Source: an uncultured Candidatus Saccharibacteria bacterium
GTDB lineage: Bacteria; Patescibacteriota; Minisyncoccia; UBA6257; GWB1-50-10
Length of the DNA stretch: 64,000 nucleotides
NCBI GenBank assembly: GCA_964357525.1
Contig: CAYHLH010000001.1
Span: 11,719 to 75,718, forward strand
Direction: 5' to 3'
The notes under the pieces are model-generated. The model worked only from the letters and a program-made list of their open reading frames with translations. It searched no databases and was not told the origin of the DNA. This document shows, piece after piece, positions 29-59,189 of this stretch (within the stretch, counting starts at the first letter, position 1; each line of letters opens with the position of its first letter). The position numbers and the translations under genes were made by a program.

Positions 29-222
29 GCCAATCTTATTTGCGAGCGGAGCGAGCAATCATAAGATTGCGCACCCGCCCAAGTTTTTTGGATTTTGCCG
101 ACTTCTTTATCATTGTTATTTTCATAATGGTATCAATTCTATTTACCCGTATAATTGCAAAAATTTGGGCGGGTAAGGTTTTGTCATCAAAATTTCTTCG
201 AAATTTTGAACAAAGCCCTTAT
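29..222 (-). promoter_or_regulatory. Conserved upstream leader module, copy A (hairpin H0 + long inverted-repeat stem P1 + short uORF) abutting the gene at window start
   Basis: P1 arms GCACCCGCCCAAGTTTTTTGG (71-91) and CAAAAATTTGGGCGGGTAAGG (158-178). H0 hairpin TCAAAATTTCTTCGAAATTTTGA (186-210) followed by CAAAGCCC. uORF MIARSARK* at 36-62 (minus). Homologous to copies B-G. Confidence 0.6.
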
Positions 223-314
223 GCCTTTTTTCCCTCTTCGCCCCGTACTTCGAACGCTGTCCCGACGCTTCGGTCGGGACTCCGACCTCTGATTTTATCA
301 GAGCGTCGGAGCTG

Positions 315-725: not shown

Positions 726-1005
726 GCCGATGTTATTCGCGAACGGAGTGAGCGACCATATTTTCATATGAATAGTTCGCTCGGTCAAAATGAAAACCAA
801 CGCTTTTCATTTCTCCCTCGCTGCTATCCATAACATCGAGCACCCGCCCAAGTTTTTGGGCGCGTGTCGACTCTTTCACCATTGATTGTTTCATTGTTAT
901 ATTCATTGTGCAGGCCTTTGTTGTTTGAAAATTTGGGCGGGTAAGGTTTGGTCAATCAAAAAACCCTCGCCTACGGCTTGGGTTTTTTGAACCAAGCCCT
1001 TAAAA
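726..1005 (-). promoter_or_regulatory. Conserved upstream leader module, copy B (diverged proximal part, long uORF) directly upstream of rpsL
   Basis: P1 arms GAGCACCCGCCCAAGTTTTTGGG (837-860) / GAAAATTTGGGCGGGTAAGG (927-946). H0 TCAAAAAACCC...GGGTTTTTTGA then ACCAAGCCC. uORF of 32 codons at 733-831 starting ATGGATA like other copies and ending TAA-CATCGGC-ATG(rpsL). Confidence 0.6.
733..831 (-). CDS. candidate leader peptide (uORF, 32 aa: [32 protein letters not shown]) upstream of rpsL
   Basis: In-frame ATG...TAA on minus strand; the start context ATGGATA and the stop-to-ATG spacing are shared with uORFs of other module copies. Confidence 0.3.
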
Positions 1006-1748: not shown

Positions 1749-2384
1749 ATGAAGAGGATAATCATCATTCTCATCGCGGTCGTCGTCATTATGGTGGGCT
1801 TTCTGGGCACTCTTTACTACCTCGTCATGCGTTCGGCGCTAGAGGAACCCGAGGCGGGAACGTCCGCGCAAACGGGGATCATGGGACTCTTCTTCAAGAA
1901 TCCCGAAACGGTGAACCCGAGTGCTTTCGTAACCACGACGACGTCCAGCGGCACCACCGTCATACAGATCGGCACAACTACGGTAACGACCGAGGCGCTC
2001 GTTGAGATCCCGACCTCCATCGTGTACATAGCGAGCGAAGCGCCGGAGAAAGTGGTGCTCTCGATCGAGAGCGTCGGCAAGACCGACAAGGGGACGGTGC
2101 TCGTCGCGCTCCGCGTATTCACGCTCGAAGCGTCGCGCGCGACCTCCATTAATCCCGCCGACTTCCTCGCGCTCATCCCTCCCGAGGGGAACGAGACGAG
2201 GCCGGACTTCATCCAGGGCAACTTCACAAACATGGCGCCGGGAGGGAACTACCAGGGGAACGCGATTTTCACGGTGCCCGCAGGGAGGACTTCCATCATC
2301 CTCCAGGTTGGGCGGGGTGAAGGCGTCGTCTTCTTCGAATTCAACTTCGCCAACAAGACATTCCGGCAGGTTGAAATAAGTTAA
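1749..2384 (+). CDS. Hypothetical membrane-anchored protein (N-terminal TM helix, Thr/Val-rich extracellular domain)
   Basis: ORF 1551..2384 trimmed to the internal ATG at 1749 (MKRIIIILIAVVVIMVGFLG...) to avoid overlap with the protease gene. Confidence 0.5.
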   Translation: MKRIIIILIAVVVIMVGFLGTLYYLVMRSALEEPEAGTSAQTGIMGLFFKNPETVNPSAFVTTTTSSGTTVIQIGTTTVTTEALVEIPTSIVYIASEAPEKVVLSIESVGKTDKGTVLVALRVFTLEASRATSINPADFLALIPPEGNETRPDFIQGNFTNMAPGGNYQGNAIFTVPAGRTSIILQVGRGEGVVFFEFNFANKTFRQVEIS

Positions 2385-2597
2385 GATTTTGTATAAAATC
2401 TGAATTCAGTGAGAATTTTATAAACAAAATCTTACCCACCCAAATTTTTAAAAGATAAAACATTATGACGAAACAATTCAATCAATTAAAAGGCAGTCAC
2501 CGCGATATCCCAACAATCGTTCAAAAACTTGGGCGGGTGCTCAATTCTATGGATAAATTTTTATCGCCGACTGACTCAAAAATTTATATATAATCGG
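2385..2597 (+). promoter_or_regulatory. Conserved upstream leader module, copy C (opposite orientation, serving the plus-strand bL28 gene)
   Basis: Reverse complement carries GATTATATATAAATTTTTGAGTC...GATAAAAATTTATCCATAGAATTGAGCACCCGCCCAAGTTTTTG; second P1 arm CTTACCCACCCAAATTTTT at 2431-2450. uORF MDKFLSPTDSKIYI* at 2549-2593 ends 5 nt before the ATG at 2599. Confidence 0.65.
2549..2593 (+). CDS. candidate leader peptide MDKFLSPTDSKIYI (uORF) upstream of rpmB-like gene
   Basis: ATG GAT AAA TTT TTA TCG CCG ACT GAC TCA AAA ATT TAT ATA TAA; conserved in copies D and G. Confidence 0.35.
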   Translation: MDKFLSPTDSKIYI

Positions 2598-2598
2598 C

Positions 2599-4367: not shown

Positions 4368-5273
4368 CTACACGTGCAGGTACCGGCGGATGGCGATGAC
4401 CGAAGAAAGGATGCCGAGCGCGACGCCGAAGAGCACCTGGTAGAGGAAAAATTTCAGGAAGTTAGCCGAAAAGTACGCACTTAAGGACACTTCGGGTATG
4501 AAATTGGAAACATATGGCGAGATGAACCCGATGATGGGCACCAAGATGAGGAAACTCACGATGGCGCCGATGACGCCGTAGAGGATGCCCTCCACGATGT
4601 AGGGCCCGCGGATGAAGTTGTTCCCCGCCCCCACGAGCCGCATGATGCCGATGGCGTCGCTGTTCGAGAATATGGCGAGCCGGATGGTGTTGAACGTGAT
4701 CATGATGGCGAGGAAGGAGAGGAACGAAGTGAGGATGGCCCCTCCGTTCCTGATGGTGTCGACGAAGGCGATGAGGCGGTCGATGACGAGTTGGTTCTGC
4801 GCATAGGTCACCTTTTCCACCTGTTCGTTGAACGAGGGCTTGTCGAGATAGCTCGCGATCGTCTCATAGTGGCGAGGGTCATTCGCCTTGATGTTCAGGG
4901 ACGCGAGAAGCGGGTTCTCGTCGAGCTGGGAGAGGGTTTCCGTGATGACCGGATCGTCCTTGTGCTGCTCCTGAAATATGCGGAGAGCGTCGTCGCGCGA
5001 GATGTACTCCACCTCTTTCACCTCCGAAAGCCCTTCAAGGGAACGCTTGATGTTCAGGACGGCGTCCTCGGTGACGTTCGTCTTGAAGTACACGCTGATG
5101 TCTATTTTCTCCTGAATGGACTCCACCGCCCCCTTTGCCACGACGTTGAAGACGATGAGGCCCTCGAAAACGATGAGCGCGAGGACCATGATGCTGATTG
5201 TGGATGCGGAAAGCCACCCGTTCCTCATGAAGCTGCTCCATCCGTATTTCACTATGCGAAGAAGTTTTACCAT
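4368..5273 (-). CDS. ftsX: Cell division permease FtsX
   Basis: 4-TM topology with large periplasmic loop, adjacent and co-directional with ftsE. Confidence 0.85.
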   Translation of the reverse strand: MVKLLRIVKYGWSSFMRNGWLSASTISIMVLALIVFEGLIVFNVVAKGAVESIQEKIDISVYFKTNVTEDAVLNIKRSLEGLSEVKEVEYISRDDALRIFQEQHKDDPVITETLSQLDENPLLASLNIKANDPRHYETIASYLDKPSFNEQVEKVTYAQNQLVIDRLIAFVDTIRNGGAILTSFLSFLAIMITFNTIRLAIFSNSDAIGIMRLVGAGNNFIRGPYIVEGILYGVIGAIVSFLILVPIIGFISPYVSNFIPEVSLSAYFSANFLKFFLYQVLFGVALGILSSVIAIRRYLHV

Positions 5274-7696: not shown

Positions 7697-8239
7697 TTAT
7701 ACCACCCGTCTCCCGCCTTCCGCCTTCCCTCGGCGGGAAACTAGCCACTTCGCCGCAAGGAACGACACTAGCGCGATGAGGAATCCCGCGACGATGTCGC
7801 TGGGCCAATGGACGCCCGAGGCGACCCGTGCGAGGGAAACGACCGCCGCGGCGACGAAGAACCATAACGCCCATTCCCGGCGCACATGCCACATCGCGAA
7901 CGCGACGGCGAATAGCAATGCCGCATGCCCCGAGGGAAACGAGCCGCCGGACGCGGTGAAAAGCGGCTTCAGGCCAAGAACCTCATACGGGCGGCCGCGG
8001 TCTATGAGAAACCCCACGATCTCCGCAATGACGCCGCGCGAGAGAAGCAGGACGAGCGCGGTGAAAAGCGCATCGTGTATGCGCGCGCGCCTCCCCTTTT
8101 CGGAGAGAAGAAGCCATAAGGCGAAGGCGCCGACGAGCCACGGCAGATAAACCGCCAGGGAGACCAATACGAAATTAAAAAAAGAGAGCCGCTCGGCAAT
8201 CTGGTAGAAGAACTGAAATAAGAGAAGATCGAGGGCCAT
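7697..8239 (-). CDS. PAP2 family phosphatase (undecaprenyl-diphosphatase-like)
   Basis: SFPSGHA and GVHWPSDI PAP2 motifs; membrane protein. Confidence 0.8.
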   Translation of the reverse strand: MALDLLLFQFFYQIAERLSFFNFVLVSLAVYLPWLVGAFALWLLLSEKGRRARIHDALFTALVLLLSRGVIAEIVGFLIDRGRPYEVLGLKPLFTASGGSFPSGHAALLFAVAFAMWHVRREWALWFFVAAAVVSLARVASGVHWPSDIVAGFLIALVSFLAAKWLVSRRGKAEGGRRVV

Positions 8240-8246
8240 TATGCAC

Positions 8247-8447
8247 TTAATTTCTGGTGAACGGCAGAAGCCCTAAAATGCGCGCGCGCTTGATGGCGCC
8301 GGCGAGCTGCCTCTGGTGCGAAGCGCACACGCCGGTGTGCCGCGGATCGATGATCTTCGCCTGCGAGGACACGAAACGCCTCAACACCTCGACGTTCTCG
8401 TGATCGATGATCTTGACATTCTGGGAACAAAAAAAGCACTGGCGCAT
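8247..8447 (-). CDS. rpsR: 30S ribosomal protein S18
   Basis: CFFC...IDHENVEVLRRFVSSQAKI.PRHTGVCASHQRQL..AIKRARILGLLPF. Confidence 0.9.
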   Translation of the reverse strand: MRQCFFCSQNVKIIDHENVEVLRRFVSSQAKIIDPRHTGVCASHQRQLAGAIKRARILGLLPFTRN

Positions 8448-8662
8448 GCCGATTATATATAAATTTTCGAGTCCACCGACGATGAAAATTTATCCATAGA
8501 ATCGAGCACCCCGCACATAATATGCCGATTCGACGATGTATAATATTCTATTTTACTCCTGTTGTTCATAAAATTAATTTTAATGAATCGCTTATGTGCA
8601 GGGTTTAGGTTTGGTAATCAAAAATTCTTCGCCCGCGGCTCGAATTTTTGAACCAAGCCCTA
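8448..8662 (-). promoter_or_regulatory. Conserved upstream leader module, copy D (type-2 P1 stem), between ssb stop and rpsR start
   Basis: P1 arms GAGCACCCCGCACATAA (8504-8520) / TTATGTGCAGGGT (8592-8604). H0 TCAAAAATTCTTCGCCCGCGGCTCGAATTTTTGA then ACCAAGCCC. uORF MDKFSSSVDSKIYI* at 8453-8497, stop 5 nt before rpsR ATG. Confidence 0.65.
8453..8497 (-). CDS. candidate leader peptide MDKFSSSVDSKIYI (uORF) upstream of rpsR
   Basis: ATG GAT AAA TTT TCA TCG TCG GTG GAC TCG AAA ATT TAT ATA TAA on the minus strand. Confidence 0.35.
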   Translation of the reverse strand: MDKFSSSVDSKIYI

Positions 8663-9124
8663 AAACGGAATATCCTCCGATTTTATCTCCTCGTCTATGG
8701 AGACCTCCGGCACCGCCTCATCGCTCGCCGGCGCGTCGGGAGTGAAGTTGTCTCCCGTATCCTGTGAGGAGGAATCCTGCGGGAATCCTCCGCGGTCGCT
8801 GCGGGGTCCGAGCTGCAGCCGCTCCCCGACTATCTCTGTGGTCTTCCTGGGATGCCCTTCCTTGTCGGTCCACGCCCTCGTCTGCAGCCTACCTTCGACG
8901 AGCGCCGACGCGCCCTTCCTTAAGAACTGGTTCGCGATCTCAGCTTGGCGCCCCCACAGGACCACGGTGTGGAATTCGGCCCTCTTCTGCTTCTCCCCGC
9001 TCTTCGAGGTGAAAAAGCTGTTCGTGGCGAGCGAGAGCGTGCACACGGACTGCCCCGTCGGCGTCTGCCGGAAATCGGGGTCCCGCGTCAGATTTCCCAT
9101 GATGAAGACCTTATTGAGGTTCAT
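8660..9124 (-). CDS. ssb: Single-stranded DNA-binding protein
   Basis: MNLNKVFIMGNLTRDPDFRQTPTGQSV OB-fold N-terminus and acidic C-terminal tail ending DIPF. Confidence 0.9.
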   Translation of the reverse strand: MNLNKVFIMGNLTRDPDFRQTPTGQSVCTLSLATNSFFTSKSGEKQKRAEFHTVVLWGRQAEIANQFLRKGASALVEGRLQTRAWTDKEGHPRKTTEIVGERLQLGPRSDRGGFPQDSSSQDTGDNFTPDAPASDEAVPEVSIDEEIKSEDIPF

Positions 9125-22171: not shown

Positions 22172-22376
22172 TTCTTCCTCCGTGATTAAATTGATTTGTA
22201 ATTCTTTATCTGTTTTTCATTATACCACATCGAAATATAAAAGTCAATAATTCAGGGATTTTGTCGACCCAGTAGAACTGTGGCATGCCGTGATTCTACG
22301 GGGTCAACCCCCGCAAGCGACAAAAATGGCCCGCTTTTATGCGGACCATGCAATACTTTATTTTTATGTAGGGGTT

Positions 22377-22946: not shown

Positions 22947-23052
22947 AGCTCACCCGCTGGGAAACCCACGGTTTTCCCACAACCTTCCTCCACGGAAGGG
23001 ACGCGGTGGCTTCCCTTCCGACCCATCCCTCGTTCAATTCCCGACAACTACT

Positions 23053-23090
23053 GAAAAGAAATTCCCTCTTGCAAGAGGGAATTTCTTTTC
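23053..23090 (-). terminator. 38-nt perfect palindrome GAAAAGAAATTCCCTCTTGCAAGAGGGAATTTCTTTTC directly 3' of tRNA-Glu
   Basis: Perfect hairpin; likely tRNA terminator/processing signal. Confidence 0.45.
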
Positions 23091-23092
23091 AG

Positions 23093-23164
23093 TAGCTCCA
23101 AGGGGAATTGAACCCCTGTTTACGCCGTGAGAGGGCGTCGTCCTAGCCACTAGACGATGGAGCC
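23093..23164 (-). tRNA. tRNA-Glu (anticodon CTC)
   Basis: Reverse complement GGCTCCATCGTCTAGTGGCTAGGACGACGCCCTCTCACGGCGT...GGTTCAATTCCCC...; anticodon loop CTCTCAC. Confidence 0.75.
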
Positions 23165-23307: not shown

Positions 23308-23736
23308 TTAAATCAAAAAATACAGGACCGCGGAAACGGCGCCGAGCGCGAGATACGGAAGGGAGATATGAAGCAAAAGCGCGTTCCTGAAGGCGTGGCG
23401 GAGATTATGGTCCGGAAATTTGGGCGCCGCAGTCCCTTCCGGCAGCGTGCCGGTCTCGAAGATTTTCTGGAGCACGCTGGCAATCTCGTCCCGGCGCTTC
23501 TTATAATTCTGGCGGTAGGTTTTGTTGATCCCCTCAAAGAACCAAAAGACGGCTAGGAGAATGACGGAAACCGCGAGGATTTCTTTCGCGTTCGACTGGA
23601 ACGCCCACCCGATGCTCACGCTCCAGAGCGTCACCGCCCATGTCTTTATTGTCGTCGTGAACCCATCGTACTTGTCCATTTGGGACTGCATCATCCCAAG
23701 TTCGTCTTTCAGGATTTCAAATTGATTCGTTTCCAT
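23308..23736 (-). CDS. Hypothetical membrane protein
   Basis: ORF 23308..23769; 3 predicted TM segments; probable start METNQFEIL. Confidence 0.4.
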   Translation of the reverse strand: METNQFEILKDELGMMQSQMDKYDGFTTTIKTWAVTLWSVSIGWAFQSNAKEILAVSVILLAVFWFFEGINKTYRQNYKKRRDEIASVLQKIFETGTLPEGTAAPKFPDHNLRHAFRNALLLHISLPYLALGAVSAVLYFLI

Positions 23737-27887: not shown

Positions 27888-28322
27888 TCAGATGCCGAGA
27901 TCGCCGAGTTTCTCCGCGATCTCATCCGCCGCGCCTTCGGTCTTCGTTTTGTATGCGTTCCATTCTCCCGCATCCCAGACCTCGAGGCGCGTGCCGACGC
28001 CGATGATGACGGCGTTTTTCGAGAGCCCCGCGAATTTCCGCAAAGGTCCCGGGATCAATATCCTTCCCTGCACGTCGAATTCCACGTCCACCGCGCTGGA
28101 GAGGAGGTGTCTTGAGAATGCCCTCGATAACGACTTCCCTATCGGTAGTCCTGAGAGTTTCTCCTCGACGAATTTTTGCCACTCGCCCTCTCCGAGGACG
28201 AAAAGGCATCTGTCGAATCCCTTCGTGATGATGCCGCCGTGAATGAGCTTCTCGCGGAACTTCGCGGGAATGGCCACCCTGCCCTTAGGGTCAACGGTAT
28301 GTGTGTATTCGCCGAGAAACAT
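27888..28322 (-). CDS. mraZ: Transcriptional regulator MraZ
   Basis: MFLGEYTHTVDPKGRVAIPAKFR duplicated MraZ domain. Confidence 0.9.
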   Translation of the reverse strand: MFLGEYTHTVDPKGRVAIPAKFREKLIHGGIITKGFDRCLFVLGEGEWQKFVEEKLSGLPIGKSLSRAFSRHLLSSAVDVEFDVQGRILIPGPLRKFAGLSKNAVIIGVGTRLEVWDAGEWNAYKTKTEGAADEIAEKLGDLGI

Positions 28323-28500
28323 GGCTCTGTGATCTGAACTCTGAGCGAACGACCATGAGCGAAATGAATTCAGTTATCACGGAGAGCACCCCGCACATAA
28401 CCGATATATTTCGCTCTTCCCACACACAACTCTCAAAACTTGTAAAAACCCCCTTTTGTCGATTGAGAGTGTTATGTGCGGGGTCCGCAGTTTCATAGAC
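28323..28500 (-). promoter_or_regulatory. Conserved upstream leader module, copy E (type-2 P1 stem; degenerate uORF) upstream of mraZ
   Basis: P1 arms GAGCACCCCGCACATAACC (28383-28401) / GTTATGTGCGGGGTCC (28470-28485); proximal segment homologous to copy D but without an intact uORF. Confidence 0.55.
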
Positions 28501-28731
28501 TCGCTCTGCTCGTATGAAACTGGGAGTTATCCCCAGAAGAGGGTACTTATCCACATATTTACCCACAATTCCCCACTTCGCCCTCATACTACACCACAAT
28601 GCGGGAAATGAAAAAGCAAATTTCCGGAGGAGCCAAAAACGCTCTTTTTGCTGTAGAAAAATGGCGTGGTGCCGGAGTTATCAACAGAGCAAAATGCCAA
28701 GCGTCAAAAGATAACGTAGAATTGAGAAATC

Positions 28732-31215: not shown

Positions 31216-31289
31216 CGGTGACCCTCCTTTCCGTTATAAGATTTTAAAATTCTCACCTTCTTTCTACCCCGCCGGACGCGCGGCGTCAA

Positions 31290-31329
31290 CCCGGTAGTAG
31301 AAACTCGATATCGAGTTTCTACTACCGGG
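31290..31329. repeat. 40-nt perfect palindrome CCCGGTAGTAGAAACTCGATATCGAGTTTCTACTACCGGG
   Basis: Arms identical to the terminal inverted repeats of the element at 37619-37760. Confidence 0.8.
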
Positions 31330-31819
31330 TCAATACCTAAAAAAAGGCCCTCGCGGTGAGGAAGGCCTTATTATTTATACGCATGAACCCAAAGGTTCTA
31401 TATGAATACAGGAGGAGAAAACAAAAAGCTACGACCAGCGTAACTTCGAACGGAACGGGCGTCAATCCCGTTAGAGAAACGGGTTTTGAGTCATGCTCAA
31501 GCGCCGGTTCATACCTTTCGGATAAGGTGTAAAAGAAAATATAAGCATAATGGAATTAAAAACCCGCATGACTATTCTCTAACGGGATCGACCCCCAAAC
31601 GAAAAGCCCACGACGGGGCGTATGAGCGCGAAAGAACCCCGATGAAAGATTCCCGACAAAGAATCAAGTGGGTTTCCGCAATTCAGTGGGTTAGAAAATC
31701 GGAGGTAGTACCAATTCTCTGTCCGACCGAAAGATGTAGGAATCCCTTTGAAAAATAATTTAGTTCGGAATCTTTTCTCCAGGGTTCTGTCTGTATTATA
31801 CCACTCGGGGTTTATGTCA

Positions 31820-35892: not shown

Positions 35893-36303
35893 CTATCGCT
35901 TTATTTTAAAGCGAAACTTTCTTTCTTCCCCGCTTTTTCGACAGTTCGGTGATTTCCCCTCTTCGGTGATGGCGATCCTATCCTCCTCGCTTTCCCCTTC
36001 CGGCGGGGACACCACGAACGATGTCTTTTCCTTGGTGCGGTCGTCCGTCACTTTCGCGATCTTTTCGGTGACGACGTTGTCCGCGCGGAGGATGAATACC
36101 TTGAGGCGGCGGAGGAATTTCTCGAACCACACCTTCAGCACCTCGTCCGCATGCTCGAGCATGAGCGTGAGCTCGTGCGTCCTGATGCGCGAACGGCTTT
36201 CCAGGAACACCTCGTTCGAAACCCTGGGGAGCGCGCGAAGGGCCAACACGATGACCCCCGCAAGCCCCGCGAACACCGCTATTTCGAAGATGAACGACCA
36301 CAT
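35893..36303 (-). CDS. Hypothetical membrane protein (N-terminal TM, charged coiled-coil C-terminus)
   Basis: 136 aa; start abuts leader module copy F. Confidence 0.5.
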   Translation of the reverse strand: MWSFIFEIAVFAGLAGVIVLALRALPRVSNEVFLESRSRIRTHELTLMLEHADEVLKVWFEKFLRRLKVFILRADNVVTEKIAKVTDDRTKEKTSFVVSPPEGESEEDRIAITEEGKSPNCRKSGEERKFRFKIKR

Positions 36304-36500
36304 GCGAATGATGTCTAAATTTTCGAGTGCCGCCGTAGCGATGAAAATTTAGCCACAACATTCAGCACCCGCCTAAGTTTTTGAATTTCTATTACGGACT
36401 TTCCCATGTCTATATTATACATCTTCAAAAATTTGGGCGGGTAAGATTCGGTACTCAAAAATCCCTCGCCTTTGGCTCAGATTTTTGAACCGAGCCCTTA
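36304..36500 (-). promoter_or_regulatory. Conserved upstream leader module, copy F
   Basis: P1 arms CAGCACCCGCCTAAGTTTTTG / CAAAAATTTGGGCGGGTAAG; H0 CTCAAAAATCCCTCGCCTTTGGCTCAGATTTTTGA then ACCGAGCCC; possible GTG-initiated uORF (M)AKFSSLRRHSKI* at 36315-36356. Confidence 0.6.
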
Positions 36501-37616: not shown

Positions 37617-37618
37617 GC

Positions 37619-37760
37619 CCGGTAGTAACTCACGCGCTCCATCCCGACCGCGGTCGGGATAGGGTGCGACTGTTCTTGAAAATAATGGAATTGTAACTCA
37701 TGACCTTATCTTTACTCTTTACCTGGAATCGTCACCATACTGCGCGTGACTACTACCGGG
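37619..37760. repeat. ~142-nt element bounded by 19-20 bp inverted repeats CCCGGTAGTAACTCACGCGC / GCGCGTGACTACTACCGGG, in the rpsB 5' region
   Basis: The inverted repeats share the CCCGGTAGTAG core with the 40-nt palindrome at 31290; internal hairpin TCCCGACCGCGGTCGGGA. Confidence 0.6.
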
Positions 37761-37819
37761 CATGTGAATAAAAACAACCTCTGTATGCTACCGAAAACGC
37801 TGCGGAAAGTCAAAGATTT

Positions 37820-37908: not shown

Positions 37909-38958
37909 CTAAATAAACCTCGCCATGAAGAAAAGTATGAGGCCGAGTATGGTCATCACGCCGGAGATTATCCAGAAACGCATGGTCACCTGCGTTTCGG
38001 GCCAGCCGAGCCCCTCGAAGTGGTGGTGGATGGGCGTGGAAAGGAAGAGCTTACGCCCGAGGAGCTTCTTGTGGAGAACCTGGATGATGACGGAGCCCGA
38101 CTCGATGAGGAGGATGAATCCGAAGAATGGGAGGAAAAGGGCCGTGTTCGTGAACATCGCCATGACCCCGAGGGTGATGCCGAGCCCCATCGAACCCGTG
38201 TCCCCCATGAAGAACTTCGCGGGATGCACGTTGTACCAGAGGAACGCCAAAAGCGCCCCCAATATCGCCGCGTTCATCGCCGCGAGGTCGAACCGGTTCA
38301 TGATGAAGGACACGATGGCCATGGCACAGAACGAGAAGAAGAGCACTCCGCCTGAAAGTCCGTCCAGGCCGTCCGTCTCGTTCGCGGAGAACGCCGTCGC
38401 GACCACCACGAACACGAAGAAAAGCATGTACCACGCGCCGAGGTCCACGAGCCCGAGGAACGGAACGTAGATCTCGCTCCAGCCGAGCCGTATGTGGAAC
38501 CACCACGCGCCTATGAGCGACACCAGTGTGTAGAGCGCGAGCTTGTGCTTGATGGTGATGCCGCCGCCCTTGCCGGACCCCTTCCCGATGATGCCCCAGA
38601 AATCGTCGATGAATCCGACAATGGCGCCGAAAGCCAATGCCGCGAGCGGCACATAGGTCTCGGGGCGGGAAACGAAGTTCAGGTATCCGAGAAATCCGTC
38701 GAAGGCGAGGTCTCCAAGGAAAAGTATGACGGCGAGCCCCAACACCGTACCCCATATGATGACGCCGCCCATCGTCGGCGTGTCGAATTTGTGCTTGTGA
38801 TGCTCGTAAAAAACGGGCGCGGTCGCCGCGTCGCGGATGTTCCTCTTCTTCAGCCCGTACTTGAGGAGCGCGCGGTACACGAAGGGCGTGATGCCCAAGG
38901 CCACGATGAACGCGATGGCGAAAACTATGAGCGCGCGTATGCTTTCGAAAACTTCCAT
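37909..38958 (-). CDS. mraY: Phospho-N-acetylmuramoyl-pentapeptide-transferase
   Basis: 10-TM MraY with MGDTGSMGLG motif. Confidence 0.9.
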   Translation of the reverse strand: MEVFESIRALIVFAIAFIVALGITPFVYRALLKYGLKKRNIRDAATAPVFYEHHKHKFDTPTMGGVIIWGTVLGLAVILFLGDLAFDGFLGYLNFVSRPETYVPLAALAFGAIVGFIDDFWGIIGKGSGKGGGITIKHKLALYTLVSLIGAWWFHIRLGWSEIYVPFLGLVDLGAWYMLFFVFVVVATAFSANETDGLDGLSGGVLFFSFCAMAIVSFIMNRFDLAAMNAAILGALLAFLWYNVHPAKFFMGDTGSMGLGITLGVMAMFTNTALFLPFFGFILLIESGSVIIQVLHKKLLGRKLFLSTPIHHHFEGLGWPETQVTMRFWIISGVMTILGLILFFMARFI

Positions 38959-38963
38959 GCCGA

Positions 38964-39008
38964 TTATATATAAATTTTCGAGTCTGCCAACGATGAAAAT
39001 TTATTCAT
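38964..39008 (-). CDS. candidate leader peptide MNKFSSLADSKIYI (uORF) upstream of mraY
   Basis: ATG AAT AAA TTT TCA TCG TTG GCA GAC TCG AAA ATT TAT ATA TAA; stop 5 nt before the mraY ATG. Confidence 0.35.
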   Translation of the reverse strand: MNKFSSLADSKIYI

Positions 39009-39039
39009 AAAATCGAGCACCCGCCTAAATTTTTGAATC

Positions 39040-39297
39040 TTATTTTTCATTGATAGTGTGAGAGAGAATCTTCTTCATATAATTTCTTCCCCATCCGGTC
39101 TTGAAATATTGTTCACGTTGCATGGCATCCTTTTGATTTCTATACAACTCACAATAAATCAGTTCCCATGGCCTCTTGTTTTTCGTTGAATGTACCCTAC
39201 CTTTTTGATGCTCCTCAACCCGCCTCTTTATATCTTGAGAATAGCCGACATATACACTTTTGTCTCTTTTACTCCTCAAAATGTAGATGCCATACAT
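39040..39297 (-). CDS. GIY-YIG nuclease family protein (UPF0213-like, 85 aa)
   Basis: MYGIYILRS...VYVGYSQDIKRRVEEH...KRPWEL; ORF 39040..39333 trimmed to the second Met because the first 12 codons are simply the P1 arm sequence. Confidence 0.75.
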   Translation of the reverse strand: MYGIYILRSKRDKSVYVGYSQDIKRRVEEHQKGRVHSTKNKRPWELIYCELYRNQKDAMQREQYFKTGWGRNYMKKILSHTINEK

Positions 39298-39354
39298 ATT
39301 CAAAAATTTTGGCGGGTAAGGTTTTCTTACCACGCCACGGCGTGGAGAAAGCCC

Positions 39355-40323
39355 TCAAAACTCATACGCCTGTTCCATCCAGGCAAGCACCGACGCGACC
39401 TCTTTCACCCTGTCGGGGCTCCCCAATATGATAACCGCGATGCGGAAATCTTTGAATGCGAGCACCGCGGCGAGGTTCTGGCGCGCCACATCTGACGTGC
39501 CCGTTTTCCCGCCGAGGAACAGCTTGTCCGAGACGAACGGATTGATGTTCGTTTCCGTTCGGAACTCCGTGGTGTTCGTCGGCTGCACGAGATAGTTCAC
39601 AAGTCGCGTCCAGTTCAGGATCTCCGGATGTTTCTCGTATATGTATTCGGTGAGAATGAACATGTCCTCCGCGCTCGTGAGGTTCGTGTCCGCAAGCCCC
39701 GACGCGTCGTTCAGAATCGTCCCTCGCATCCCGAGCTCGCCCGCCTTCTTGTTCAATAACCGGTTCATCTCCGCCTTTCCTCCCGCGAAATCCTCGAACG
39801 CCGCCGCCGCGCGGTTCGAGGAGGTGAGGAGCATTATCTTCAGGAGATCGCCCGAAAGGTACACTTCCCCGCTTTTGAGCCCTCCCGCAACGCCTTCCGC
39901 GAGCATTGCCCGTTCGGTGACCGGCACTTTCCGCTGATTGCCGTACTGTTCAAGGACCACGACGGCCGTGAGAAGCTTTGAGAGCGACGCCGCGGGCCAC
40001 GTCTCGCGCGTGCGGTAGCGGAAGAACGGGAAATCCTCGTCGAGCGACTGGACGAGCACCGCCTGCGCCTCGATGGTGGGGTCCAACACTTCCCATTTCC
40101 GCTCGGGAAGCCGCTTGTTCGAAGGCCTCGTGTTCTGCGAGAGGGCGTCCGAGCCGTACCCGGTCGATGTCGGCGAGCCCGAAACGTCTATCGTGCGAGA
40201 CGTGAAGAGCGCGCCGAAATCCCCTCCGTAAAAGACGAAGAACACTATGCCTCCCGCGACGAGCGCGGTTCCGACGACCGCGAATGCGGCGTTCCCGGTT
40301 TTCTTGAGGATTTCCCTAAGCAT
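39355..40323 (-). CDS. D-alanyl-D-alanine carboxypeptidase (serine peptidase S11)
   Basis: SLSKLLTAVV (SxxK) motif, N-terminal TM. Confidence 0.7.
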   Translation of the reverse strand: MLREILKKTGNAAFAVVGTALVAGGIVFFVFYGGDFGALFTSRTIDVSGSPTSTGYGSDALSQNTRPSNKRLPERKWEVLDPTIEAQAVLVQSLDEDFPFFRYRTRETWPAASLSKLLTAVVVLEQYGNQRKVPVTERAMLAEGVAGGLKSGEVYLSGDLLKIMLLTSSNRAAAAFEDFAGGKAEMNRLLNKKAGELGMRGTILNDASGLADTNLTSAEDMFILTEYIYEKHPEILNWTRLVNYLVQPTNTTEFRTETNINPFVSDKLFLGGKTGTSDVARQNLAAVLAFKDFRIAVIILGSPDRVKEVASVLAWMEQAYEF

Positions 40324-58141: not shown

Positions 58142-58411
58142 CTACTCAGGACTTTCAGCACCGCTCGTTTTTTTTATTAAAGAGAGTTTTTTGTCTCTGC
58201 GCCAGCCTTTGATTTCCTTTTCCCTGCGCCGTGCTTCTACAAGAGTTTTGAACTTCTCTGAATGTGCCAAAGCGACAGGCCGACGGATCTTCGTGTAATG
58301 AGCACCCCATTTTGAGTTGTTGTGCTGTTCTATTCTCCTTTTAAGATTATTCGTACAACCCACGTACAATGATTCGTCGTCGCACCGGAGAATATAAACA
58401 AAATACCCCAC
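58142..58411 (-). CDS. GIY-YIG nuclease family protein (UPF0213-like, 89 aa)
   Basis: MGYFVYILRCDDESLYVGCTNNLKRRIEQH; flanked by repeats that resemble the tRNA-Gln 3' end. Confidence 0.75.
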   Translation of the reverse strand: MGYFVYILRCDDESLYVGCTNNLKRRIEQHNNSKWGAHYTKIRRPVALAHSEKFKTLVEARRREKEIKGWRRDKKLSLIKKTSGAESPE

Positions 58412-58525: not shown

Positions 58526-58700
58526 GCTGCGGGACAGGGAATCGAATCTCTAGGTCTCTGACCGGGACCCCGGTCGCTTCGCGACCTAGGGGCCCCAATT
58601 TTTTGGTTTCCCTAGGTCTCTGACCGGGACCCCGGTCGCTCCGCGACCTAGGGGCAGAGCCATGTGTCCTATCCCTAGGTAAATTTATGCCTTTTCCTGC
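58526..58700 (-). pseudogene. Disrupted tRNA-Gln-like copy interrupted by two 44-nt palindromic elements
   Basis: 3' part GATTCGATTCCCTGTCCCGCAGC and 5' part GGATAGGACACATGGCTCTG match the intact tRNA-Gln; two copies of CCTAGGTCTCTGACCGGGACCCCGGTCGC(T/C)(T/C)CGCGACCTAGGGG lie between them; no acceptor pairing. Confidence 0.5.
58551..58653. repeat. Tandem pair of 44-nt hairpin-rich palindromic elements (third copy at 59029-59074)
   Basis: CCTAGGTC...GACCTAGG outer stem, GACCGGGACCCCGGTC inner palindrome; three copies within 550 nt. Confidence 0.7.
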
Positions 58701-58789: not shown

Positions 58790-59025
58790 ACCAATAACTT
58801 TTTAAGCTTACCGCCCCACGGGGTGTACTTCAACGCCCATTCCTTTTTACGAGCTTCAGATAATGATTTAAAGAATTCACTGTATACTAACCGCAAGGGG
58901 CGTCTGAATCTCGTACTTTTGACCTTGCCGCCATTGTGAGTAACAATCCTCTTCTCAAGATTCATACAGGTTCCTGTATAAAAATTTCCATCTTTTTCGC
59001 TTTTCAAAATATAAAGATACGGCAT
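58790..59025 (-). CDS. GIY-YIG nuclease family protein (UPF0213-like, ~78 aa)
   Basis: MPYLYILKSEKDGNFYTGTCMNLEKRIVTHN; ORF 58675..59082 is open through tRNA-Gln, so the 3' end is approximate; start trimmed to MPYLYIL; preceded by the third copy of the 44-nt palindrome. Confidence 0.65.
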
Positions 59026-59189
59026 AAATTTACCGGGACCCCGGTCGCTTCGCGACCTAGGGGCCGTTAGACGATCCCGCAATGGTTTACCTGCGGCAGA
59101 CAGGCATTTTTGATATTAGCGCACTCTATTTTTGAAAACAATCCCGACGTAAGGTCGATACTCCGACTGAAACGTCGGAGGAAATCAAA

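Follow-up and report, generated by a model that had tools for sequence, protein, structure and literature searches.

A composite element made of three abutting hairpins, here designated P0, P1 and P2, occurs seven times in a 64,000-nt stretch of DNA from an uncultured Candidatus Saccharibacteria bacterium (assembly GCA_964357525.1, contig CAYHLH010000001.1, positions 11,719 to 75,718; the whole stretch is called the window below), each time directly against the start codon of a gene. The copy before rpsR (copy D) and its six siblings (copies A to C and E to G) are overall best explained, and probably correctly so, as members of a high-copy modular hairpin insertion-element family of Patescibacteria. 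It is very probable that this is a mobile palindromic family carrying a GIY-YIG nuclease gene as cargo, and the mobility of the element is well supported by comparison of related loci. The element takes the place of the short spacer (2-12 nt) that otherwise separates the stop codon of one host gene from the start codon of the following one, and the tip of P1 holds an empty 3-nt loop, a gene for a GIY-YIG protein of ~85 aa (UPF0213/Slx1 type) or decayed remnants of that gene.

Seven copies and their three hairpins

The window has ~57% G+C with sharp AT-rich islands, seven of which share the composite repeat. Searching for TTGGGCGGGTGCTCGAT with up to 3 mismatches allowed gave 5 matches in the window against 0.23 expected, the corresponding figures for AGGGCTTGGTTCAAAAA being 4 and 0.15, and a repeat search linked all seven copies to one another. 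A covariance model made from 19 elements, all from other genomes, and run unfiltered over the 64 kb matched the seven claimed sites and nowhere else, with E-values between 1e-26 and 1e-6 for six copies and a marginal 0.03-0.08 for copy E. An earlier account made from the letters of the window (the preliminary description) had reported seven occurrences, each against a start codon, and patterns and covariance model both confirm this, copy E being marginal. The 3′ end of each copy is the start codon of a co-directional gene, and the identities of rpsL, rpsR, mraZ and mraY are backed by Pfam. Copy C is inverted along with its plus-strand gene, so that orientation tracks the gene and not the replicon strand. 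The copies and their parts are as follows, with the range and bit score of the model match given for each (uORF, upstream open reading frame).

29..221 (-), copy A: P0 174-221, P1 74-173, P2 29-72, uORF 36-125; match 26-221, 94 bits; followed by a gene that starts at 28 and leaves the window, probably rpsG
726..1002 (-), copy B: P0 942-1002, P1 843-941, P2 726-841 with an extra nested hairpin; match 794-1002, 57 bits; before rpsL
2382..2598 (+), copy C: P0 2382-2434, P1 2435-2537, P2 2539-2598, uORF 2465-2593; match 2409-2601, 64 bits; before the gene of a 72-aa Zn-ribbon protein
8448..8663 (-), copy D, whole: between the ssb stop TAG at 8660-8662 and the rpsR ATG at 8445-8447; match 8445-8624, 40 bits
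8605..8663 (-), copy D, P0: basal TTAGG/CCTAA including the ssb stop, A/T-rich inner stem, GC-rich apex
8508..8604 (-), copy D, P1: type b, ACCCTGCACATAA / TTATGTGCGGGGT, with an AT-rich 63-nt loop
8448..8507 (-), copy D, P2: GC(T)CGATTC to GAATCG-GC, flush with the ATG
8453..8569 (-), copy D, uORF: 38 codons and a stop (MNNRSKIEYYTSSNRHIMCGVLDSMDKFSSSVDSKIYI), starting in the P1 loop and stopping 5 nt before the rpsR ATG
28323..28522 (-), copy E, divergent: P0-like 28488-28522, P1 type b arms 28471-28483 / 28389-28401, P2 28324-28387; match 28320-28527, 16-18 bits (E 0.03-0.08, marginal); before mraZ
36304..36500 (-), copy F: P0 36442-36500, P1 36368-36441, P2 36304-36366, uORF 36315-36422; match 36301-36500, 113 bits; between tsf and the gene of a 136-aa membrane protein
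38959..39357 (-), copy G: P0 39317-39357, P1 arms 39298-39316 / 39020-39039, P2 38959-39018; matches 38956-39093 and 39167-39357, 36 and 32.5 bits; between the D-Ala-D-Ala carboxypeptidase gene and mraY
39040..39297 (-), copy G, GIY-YIG nuclease gene: 85 aa, flush in the P1 apex
38964..39050 (-), copy G, relay uORF: 28 codons, its ATG overlapping the end of the GIY-YIG gene and its stop 5 nt before the mraY ATG

Folded as RNA, copy D gives three abutting helices, P0, P1 and P2, and then the AUG (minimum free energy -67.8 kcal/mol, z -5.8). RNAalifold was applied to an alignment of 19 short elements with hand-curated boundaries, which were used because automatic delimitation of P0 by folding recovered only 39 elements. 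P0 was placed in columns 4-82, P1 in 83-121, P2 in 122-192 and the ATG in 193-195, with no linker between the helices. Pairing was found in 95% of cells vs 80.7% in shuffles, double-sided changes occur in 22 of 41 pairs, and the covariation score of 0.367 vs 0.122 was reached by none of 500 shuffles; in slid controls pairing was ≤50%.

At the 5′ edge of the element GGGCT is preceded by a stop triplet (TAA, TAAA, TGA or TAG), which is the true stop codon of ssb in copy D, of tsf in copy F and of the D-Ala-D-Ala carboxypeptidase gene in copy G. In the basal helix of P0 the stop triplet is paired with the TTA directly before P1. Among 77 copies with a long upstream open reading frame (ORF), the element mostly opens with the stop of that ORF (TAAGGGCT in 22 and TAAAGGGC in 19), TAA is fully paired with TTA in 57, and the basal pairing is maintained in the occasional variants TGA/TCA, TTAGG/CCTAA and TAAGTA/TACTTA. 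P1 is nearly invariant and 17-20 bp long, reading CCCGCC(A/C)AAATTTTTG ... CAAAAA(C/T)TT(A/G)GGCGGG, and retains a conserved A.C mismatch on the sense strand; copies D and E and one relative carry a second type (b), CCCCGCACATAA/TTATGTGCGGGG. The sequence of P2 varies freely with its pairing kept, and its last pairs join the invariant GC of GGGT-GC-T to the GC immediately before the ATG. The ends of the element, GGGCTTTGT... and ...AAATTTGGC, are not mutual reverse complements, and the pseudo-symmetry is one of architecture only. P2 is built as an inverted P0, having the bulge on the opposite arm and the GNA-type tip on the opposite strand, a pseudo-symmetry about the cargo site as would be expected of DNA recognised from both sides.

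The copies were at first called near-identical, which overstates their likeness, as they are mosaics of two P1 types (A, B, C, F and G vs D and E) and three P2 types. The inverted-repeat stem said to enclose a loop of 60-100 nt exists as P1, but the loop measures 265 nt in copy G, where it is the GIY-YIG gene, and 42 nt in copy F. The motif AACCAAACCTTACC that had been singled out is present, and is actually the 3′ arm of the first hairpin together with the bases pairing with the upstream stop codon.

Occupied and empty junctions and the gene in the P1 tip

Homologues of mraY led to four syntenic relatives with the gene block scpA-scpB-peptidase-mraY-rpsB-tsf followed by the gene found after copy F. 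The two junctions concerned compare as follows, the sequences being given as stop codon, spacer and start codon.

Junction peptidase-mraY: 396-nt copy G in the window; TGA-ATTAGTACT-GTG in relative L135; TAA-TC-ATG in L136; TAG-ATTCC-ATG in L137
Junction tsf-copy F gene: 194-nt copy F in the window; a 180-nt element in L135; TAA-TTCCCGGCGACC-ATG in L136; TAG-AAAC-ATG in L137

Junctions lacking the element in close syntenic relatives measure 2-12 nt. The flanking proteins are conserved up to their last and first residues in filled and empty junctions, so the stop and start codons are the host's own and the element stands exactly in place of the spacer. The element of L135 at the tsf junction differs from copy F in having another P0, a type-b P1 and another P2. 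P2 identity is 0.90 among eight copies before eight different genes on one 320-kb contig, vs 0.51-0.64 for copies before the same gene in different genomes; this within-genome likeness argues for proliferation or gene conversion in the genome and not for locus-by-locus inheritance. As in MITEs (transposable elements of miniature size with inverted repeats), the element is short, non-coding, multicopy and polymorphic in presence and absence (7 copies per 64 kb, >120 elsewhere, and empty orthologous junctions), but the conserved inverted repeat, P1, is central and not terminal. The hairpin-forming, extragenic and genome-homogenised palindromes that define REPINs are found here as well.

The length of the P1 loop in 119 copies is 3-9 nt in ~45, 40-102 nt in ~55 and 258-282 nt in 12. 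Short loops mostly show the motif GC-GNA-GC, the empty form being a 3-nt G-N-A loop. Intact and mutually homologous GIY-YIG ORFs, all in the orientation of the element and flush between the P1 arms, occupy 9 of the 12 long loops, and in the other 3 the ORF is broken. The protein of copy G matches Pfam PF01541 with an E-value of 2e-18, its nearest sequences in the PDB are the UPF0213 protein BH0048 and the structure-specific endonuclease SLX1, and homologues sit at the equivalent position in 11 other elements. These proteins, of 83-88 aa, are the catalytic domain alone, without a separate DNA-binding domain, and reach 25 bits with the group I intron endonuclease model TIGR01453, whose cut-off is 56; the gene between the P1 arms gave no match to an HUH Y1 (RAYT) transposase. 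The P1 arms are identical whether or not the gene is present, its first and last codons survive in some mid-length loops, which are internal deletions (L096 vs L093, copy F vs copy G), and P1-type hairpins are nested in the loops of P0, P1 and P2, once inverted.

Spread of the family could have proceeded by the nuclease cutting hairpin or cruciform tips or empty junctions, whereupon a resident element would be copied in by repair, and the family would in this way both spread and homogenise within a genome. It is an even call whether the GIY-YIG nuclease is indeed the mobilising enzyme.

A protein-side survey of five GIY-YIG homologues placed three flush in complete elements with co-directional genes on either side, one in an 8-bp inverted repeat of another kind and one in the D-loop of a tRNA gene. 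The last (L132 1-813, GCA_040961635.1) is 58% identical and lies together with a P1-like hairpin in a tRNA gene with the anticodon region TTGACAT, and the insertion shows a 12-nt duplication, TCAGCTGGTTAG. By its sequence it looks like a hairpin-tip invasion of the same kind, here in a structural RNA gene. For rRNA genes of the Candidate Phyla Radiation (CPR), a survey has reported non-intron insertions that carry GIY-YIG ORFs, and it places most rRNA insertions at the top or base of stem-loops (PMC11270868). Another GIY-carrying element (L130 1-6216, GCA_041643275.1), with a P2 nearly identical to those of copies D and G and a P0 matching that of D, is situated inside a conjugation or type IV secretion system (T4SS)-like cluster (PrgI, TraC-like, TraG-type ATPase), a location that could be a route for horizontal spread. 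The window also contains a second, different GIY-YIG gene at 58145-58411 (-), encoding 89 aa (PF01541, E 8.5e-18) and flanked by direct repeats TCCTGAGTnnAnCGAAGGATGA. It adjoins a tRNA-Gln gene and three 47-nt GC-rich palindromic units containing GTCGCGAAGCGAC, at 58547-58593, 58609-58655 and 59018-59064.

The left arm of P1 retrieved 11 true copies in metagenome-assembled genomes of several Patescibacteria lineages, labelled Wolfebacteria, Kaiserbacteria, Tagabacteria, Saccharibacteria, Paceibacterota and others, Colwellbacteria also being in the range of the family. The right arm retrieved 110 metagenome stretches, many of them from the window's own Hainich groundwater site. The distinct copies elsewhere number >120, in groundwater and sediment Patescibacteria, and the covariance model adds copies missed by exact patterns, with as many as six in a locus of 8-13 kb. 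A scan of viral contigs for the right arm of P1 gave no match and hence no sign of a phage vector. A co-directional ORF beginning with ATG follows 108 of the 112 distinct copies that have enough downstream sequence, preceded by exactly ...GC in 83 of the 108 and by T(T/C)GGC in 70. The downstream genes are 99 distinct ones, ~30 of them ribosomal-protein genes (L6, S13, S12, S18, S8, L21, L11, S5, S3, L18 and more), and the others include pilB, pilC, a NYN-domain gene, a T4SS ATPase gene, rpoA, efp, mreB, gyrA, tpiA, ssb, gatB and methyltransferase genes.

These data bear differently on the parts of the preliminary description. That the module is structured, specific in orientation and fixed in its register to the start codon holds good, and the register is general (a co-directional ORF in 108 of 112, with exactly ...GC before the ATG in 83 of the 108). 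No known riboswitch, T-box or ribosomal-protein leader had been recognised, and no Rfam family emerged either: a gathering-threshold scan of the window gave 4 tRNAs only, and E-value scans of 1-2700 and 8400-8720 yielded at most chance matches of 15-17 bits. Literature searches on GIY-YIG proteins, Patescibacteria, intergenic repeats and leaderless translation likewise turned up no account of the element. "Lineage-specific" is not supported, given the presence of the family in many Patescibacteria lineages, nor is "control element for core growth genes", given ~100 different downstream genes including pilB, NYN-domain and T4SS ATPase genes. A dedicated regulator is further disfavoured by the empty junctions in syntenic relatives, the homogenisation within genomes and the nuclease gene or its remnants in the central hairpin, which are properties of a mobile element and not of such a regulator. 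An effect of the element on expression is nevertheless likely.

Proposed translation across the element

Junctions free of the element are 2-7 nt long and lack a Shine-Dalgarno (SD) sequence (TAAACATG, TAAACCATG), and conventional promoters and SD sequences occur elsewhere, for example at rpsB. Such ultra-compact SD-less junctions of ribosomal-protein operons were noted in related genomes, at L057 1562-3736, L061 12422-12429, L136 and L137 (TAAACATG, TAAACCATG, TAAAACCATG, TAAACCAGCATG), with C at -1 of the start codon nearly always. Clear GGAGG sites precede the window starts at 5273, 21606, 43495 and 61886.

With P0, P1 and P2 folded there are zero unpaired nucleotides between stop and start, which would make the junction topologically compact. 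In mid-length loops an ORF beginning with an ATG in the P1 loop crosses the P1 3′ arm and P2, most stopping 5-7 nt before the host ATG. Such an ORF ends ≤30 nt from the host ATG in 21 of 35 distinct mid-loop elements, compared with 5.6 expected from loop shuffles (P < 5e-5), and five of the window copies (A, C, D, F and G) have one; the sense strand has longer open frames than the antisense strand. The short uORF of the preliminary description is therefore real, but it is longer than was described and overlaps P2, and in A, C, D and F its start lies upstream in the P1 loop.

The element would be tolerated in tightly coupled SD-less operons, translated from junctions such as TAA-AC-ATG, because either the folding or the relay uORF keeps stop and start effectively adjacent. 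In elements with a long P1 loop, the GIY-YIG gene and/or a uORF of 28-45 codons would start in the loop and end 5-7 nt before the host ATG, and termination of the uORF would hand the ribosomes to that ATG by termination-reinitiation. As a mechanism, translational transparency through juxtaposition by hairpins or through a relay uORF is offered tentatively, and falls short of an even chance. More doubtful still is the full picture of a "translationally transparent" mobile insertion across which ribosomes reach a start 130-400 nt downstream without SD sequence. If true, it would amount to a bacterial version of ribosome shunting, or to successive events of termination-reinitiation, and transparency would let selfish GIY-YIG-driven palindromes colonise the ribosomal-protein operons of streamlined CPR genomes.

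Two other possibilities were tried and rejected. Readthrough or frameshifting from the upstream gene through the element is at odds with the register of the open frame relative to the upstream ORF, which differs between copies (L031 vs L052). P0 does not qualify as an intrinsic terminator, as no terminator-like site was seen within 8200-8900 or, within 1-2700, where P0 lies; P0 in other genomes lacks a T-run.

Alternative readings and known systems

Several points weigh against a mobile insertion that is passed over by the ribosome. On the side of mobility, the comparison of filled and empty junctions shows no target-site duplication, the flanks being simply stop codon, element and ATG, no transposition or homing event was observed directly, and the precise arrival of the element at new junctions is left unexplained. 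The GIY-YIG gene, carried by only ~10% of copies, could be a secondary parasite of the P1 tip, and the recurrence of downstream genes across genomes (rpsM, rplF, rpsR, rplK) could also mean a host function. On the side of translation, docking on the stop codon is not universal, since copies A and B begin with TAA, yet lie 85-95 nt beyond the end of the upstream gene; a relay ORF with an ATG start is absent from short-loop elements; and a ribosome decoding the stop codon must melt P0 first. Covariation, moreover, shows hairpins but does not tell RNA from DNA. There is no excess of sense-strand G.U over A.C in the strand-symmetric mismatch count, the antisense strand folds equally well or better, and the A.C mismatch conserved in P1 is on the sense strand, although the mismatch and folding-energy tests of strand are confounded by conserved internal loops and loop motifs. 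The common P1 tip GCGAAGC is better known as a very stable DNA mini-hairpin. The orientation of the element is always that of the gene, and the model scores 2-3 times higher on the sense than on the antisense strand.

Foremost among the alternatives is a host cis-acting RNA, i.e. a structured intercistronic leader that regulates or coordinates ribosomal-protein and cell-envelope genes through protein binding or uORF control, the GIY-YIG gene then being a later parasite of the P1 loop. Strict orientation with the gene, the fixed ATG register, the strong covariation of P0 and P2 and the conservation of the uORF beyond chance all agree with it, the near-invariance of P1 across lineages suggests a trans-acting partner, and ~30% of the downstream genes encode ribosomal proteins, with the same genes recurring. 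It is nonetheless unlikely, as syntenic relatives have the orthologous junctions empty, copies are alike within a genome rather than between orthologues, and downstream genes include pilB, NYN-domain, T4SS and methyltransferase genes. Nor does it sit well with nested and inverted P1 modules, with the lack of a sense-strand G.U over A.C bias or with the pseudo-symmetric build in which P2 is an inverted P0.

A mobile promoter cassette, in which leaderless or short-leader mRNA would arise from a promoter of the sigma-70 type located in the P2 3′ arm or the AT-rich P1 loop, is more unlikely than a host leader. TATAAT stands just before the ATG in copies C, D and G, weak sigma-70-like matches directed at the gene occur in the P1 loops of A and D, and other window genes often look leaderless, with TATAAT/TATACT, 6-7 nt and ATG. 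However, with the -10-like hexamer only 4 nt away from the A of the ATG, transcription would have to begin within the start codon itself, the -12 to -7 consensus, wAYAAA, has no final T, and the P2 3′ arm is free to vary if paired. Short-loop elements are devoid of any promoter-like sequence, and most copies are inside operons that have conventional promoters of their own, e.g. rpsB. A -10 box in the P2 3′ arm serving leaderless mRNA was accordingly rejected for its wrong spacing and unconserved sequence, and no common promoter motif was seen in the mid-length P1 loops, which are heterogeneous. Hexamers like TATAAT/TATACT, 6-7 nt before starts without SD, were noted in the window at 23736, 47497, 52623, 56609, 57179, 7297 and 55693 and at L061 9498, and their sequence suggests that leaderless mRNAs may be frequent in the window organism.

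Least probable is a role in RNA processing or stability, with hairpins as RNase III-type cleavage sites or 3′-exonuclease blocks that cut polycistronic mRNA into stable units and unmask an SD-less start, like T7 intergenic RNase III sites, REP and Correia elements: P1 has ~20 bp with conserved internal mismatches, the long P0 and P2 stems exactly bracket the coding regions, and Correia elements are RNase III substrates altering the expression of neighbouring genes (PMC2649163), but pseudo-symmetry, nested insertions and nuclease cargo are unaccounted for, and processing could accompany a mobile element as a side effect without competing with that reading.

Regarded as a mobile insertion, the element compares with known systems as a palindromic mobile repeat plus a homing-type nuclease, in which the way of staying harmless is possibly new. 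REP/BIME sequences and REPINs with RAYT (PMC3116915) are likewise high-copy extragenic hairpin-forming palindromes, occurring as mosaics and inside operons, with within-genome homogeneity and with the cognate gene between two inverted repeat copies. The enclosed gene here is, in contrast, GIY-YIG (PF01541) and not an HUH/Y1 transposase (PMC3116915), and the element has three ordered hairpins flush on the stop and start codons and a relay uORF. Correia elements (CREE) of Neisseria and MITEs of the ERIC and RUP type (PMC2649163, PMC10969869) are similar in being ~100-200 nt long with inverted repeats near gene starts, in being co-transcribed and hairpin-forming, in altering or preserving neighbour expression and in presence/absence polymorphism between strains. 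In CREE the inverted repeats are terminal, the target duplication is TA and the distance to genes varies, whereas the present element has no target duplication, has its conserved inverted repeat (P1) in the centre and is bordered by stop and start codons.

GIY-YIG homing genes, such as those of the T4 Seg proteins (PMC2988022), and the CPR rRNA insertions (PMC11270868) share with the element the insertion between or inside conserved genes and at a hairpin tip, the presence/absence polymorphism and the decayed copies. Unlike the homing enzymes I-TevI and Seg, the protein here is a catalytic domain of ~85 aa without DNA-binding domain, its target is a multicopy palindrome and not a unique gene, and most copies are gene-less. 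The nearest conceptual parallel for a mobile insert neutralised in translation is the bypass of T4 gene 60 with the MobA endonuclease (bioRxiv 10.1101/2022.08.31.505936), where hairpins similarly join take-off and landing sites and an ORF ends at a stem base, the coupling in the present element being a proposal. Gene 60 bypassing joins the halves of one ORF via matched GGA codons, in contrast to two ORFs and termination-reinitiation here. Hairpin-mediated joining of take-off and landing sites is similar in ribosome shunting of caulimoviruses.

CPR/Patescibacteria genomes are regarded as streamlined, yet the element occupies their most conserved operons at ~1 copy per 9 kb in the window and fills the junctions rpsL-rpsG, ssb-rpsR, rpmJ-rpsM and rpsH-rplF. 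It gives the small GIY-YIG (UPF0213) proteins, which are abundant but have no explained function, a concrete partner in DNA or RNA and provides a testable model for the translation of SD-less genes across a structured insert of 150-400 nt. It also explains the "conserved leaders" that gene-caller and RNA-motif searches of such genomes find before unrelated genes, and the near-invariant P1 stem offers a practical marker of these lineages and of their horizontal exchange.

Several further palindromes and motifs are present in the window. A second family, with arms CCCGGTAGTAG...CTACTACCGGG, is present at 37617-37770 (-), 31289-31330 and 22263-22308 of the window. A copy with 19-bp CCCGGTAGTAG/CTACTACCGGG arms around ~110 nt separates the conserved promoter/leader of rpsB from the ATG of that gene and has (C)ATG on either side (CAC-ATG-element-GGGC-ATG), and 31289-31330 is a perfect 42-nt palindrome with arms of the same family. 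Between the rpsL stop and copy A, at 222-314 (-), are two further GC-rich hairpins, CTCCGACGCTCTGATAAAATCAGAGGTCGGAG, and GTCCCGACCGAAGCGTCGGGAC with a C-GAA-G tip, and these may represent one more family of small palindromic modules. A perfect DnaA-box-like nonamer TGTGGATAA (complement TTATCCACA) is found at 28548-28556 (-), just upstream of copy E and mraZ, and GTGTGTGGGAAG in the P1 loop of copy E recalls the GTGGG repeats bound by MraZ. The tRNA-Glu gene (23092-23164) directly adjoins a perfect palindrome of 48 nt (CTACTGAAAAGAAATTCCCTCTTG / CAAGAGGGAATTTCTTTTCAGTAG) at 23048-23095.

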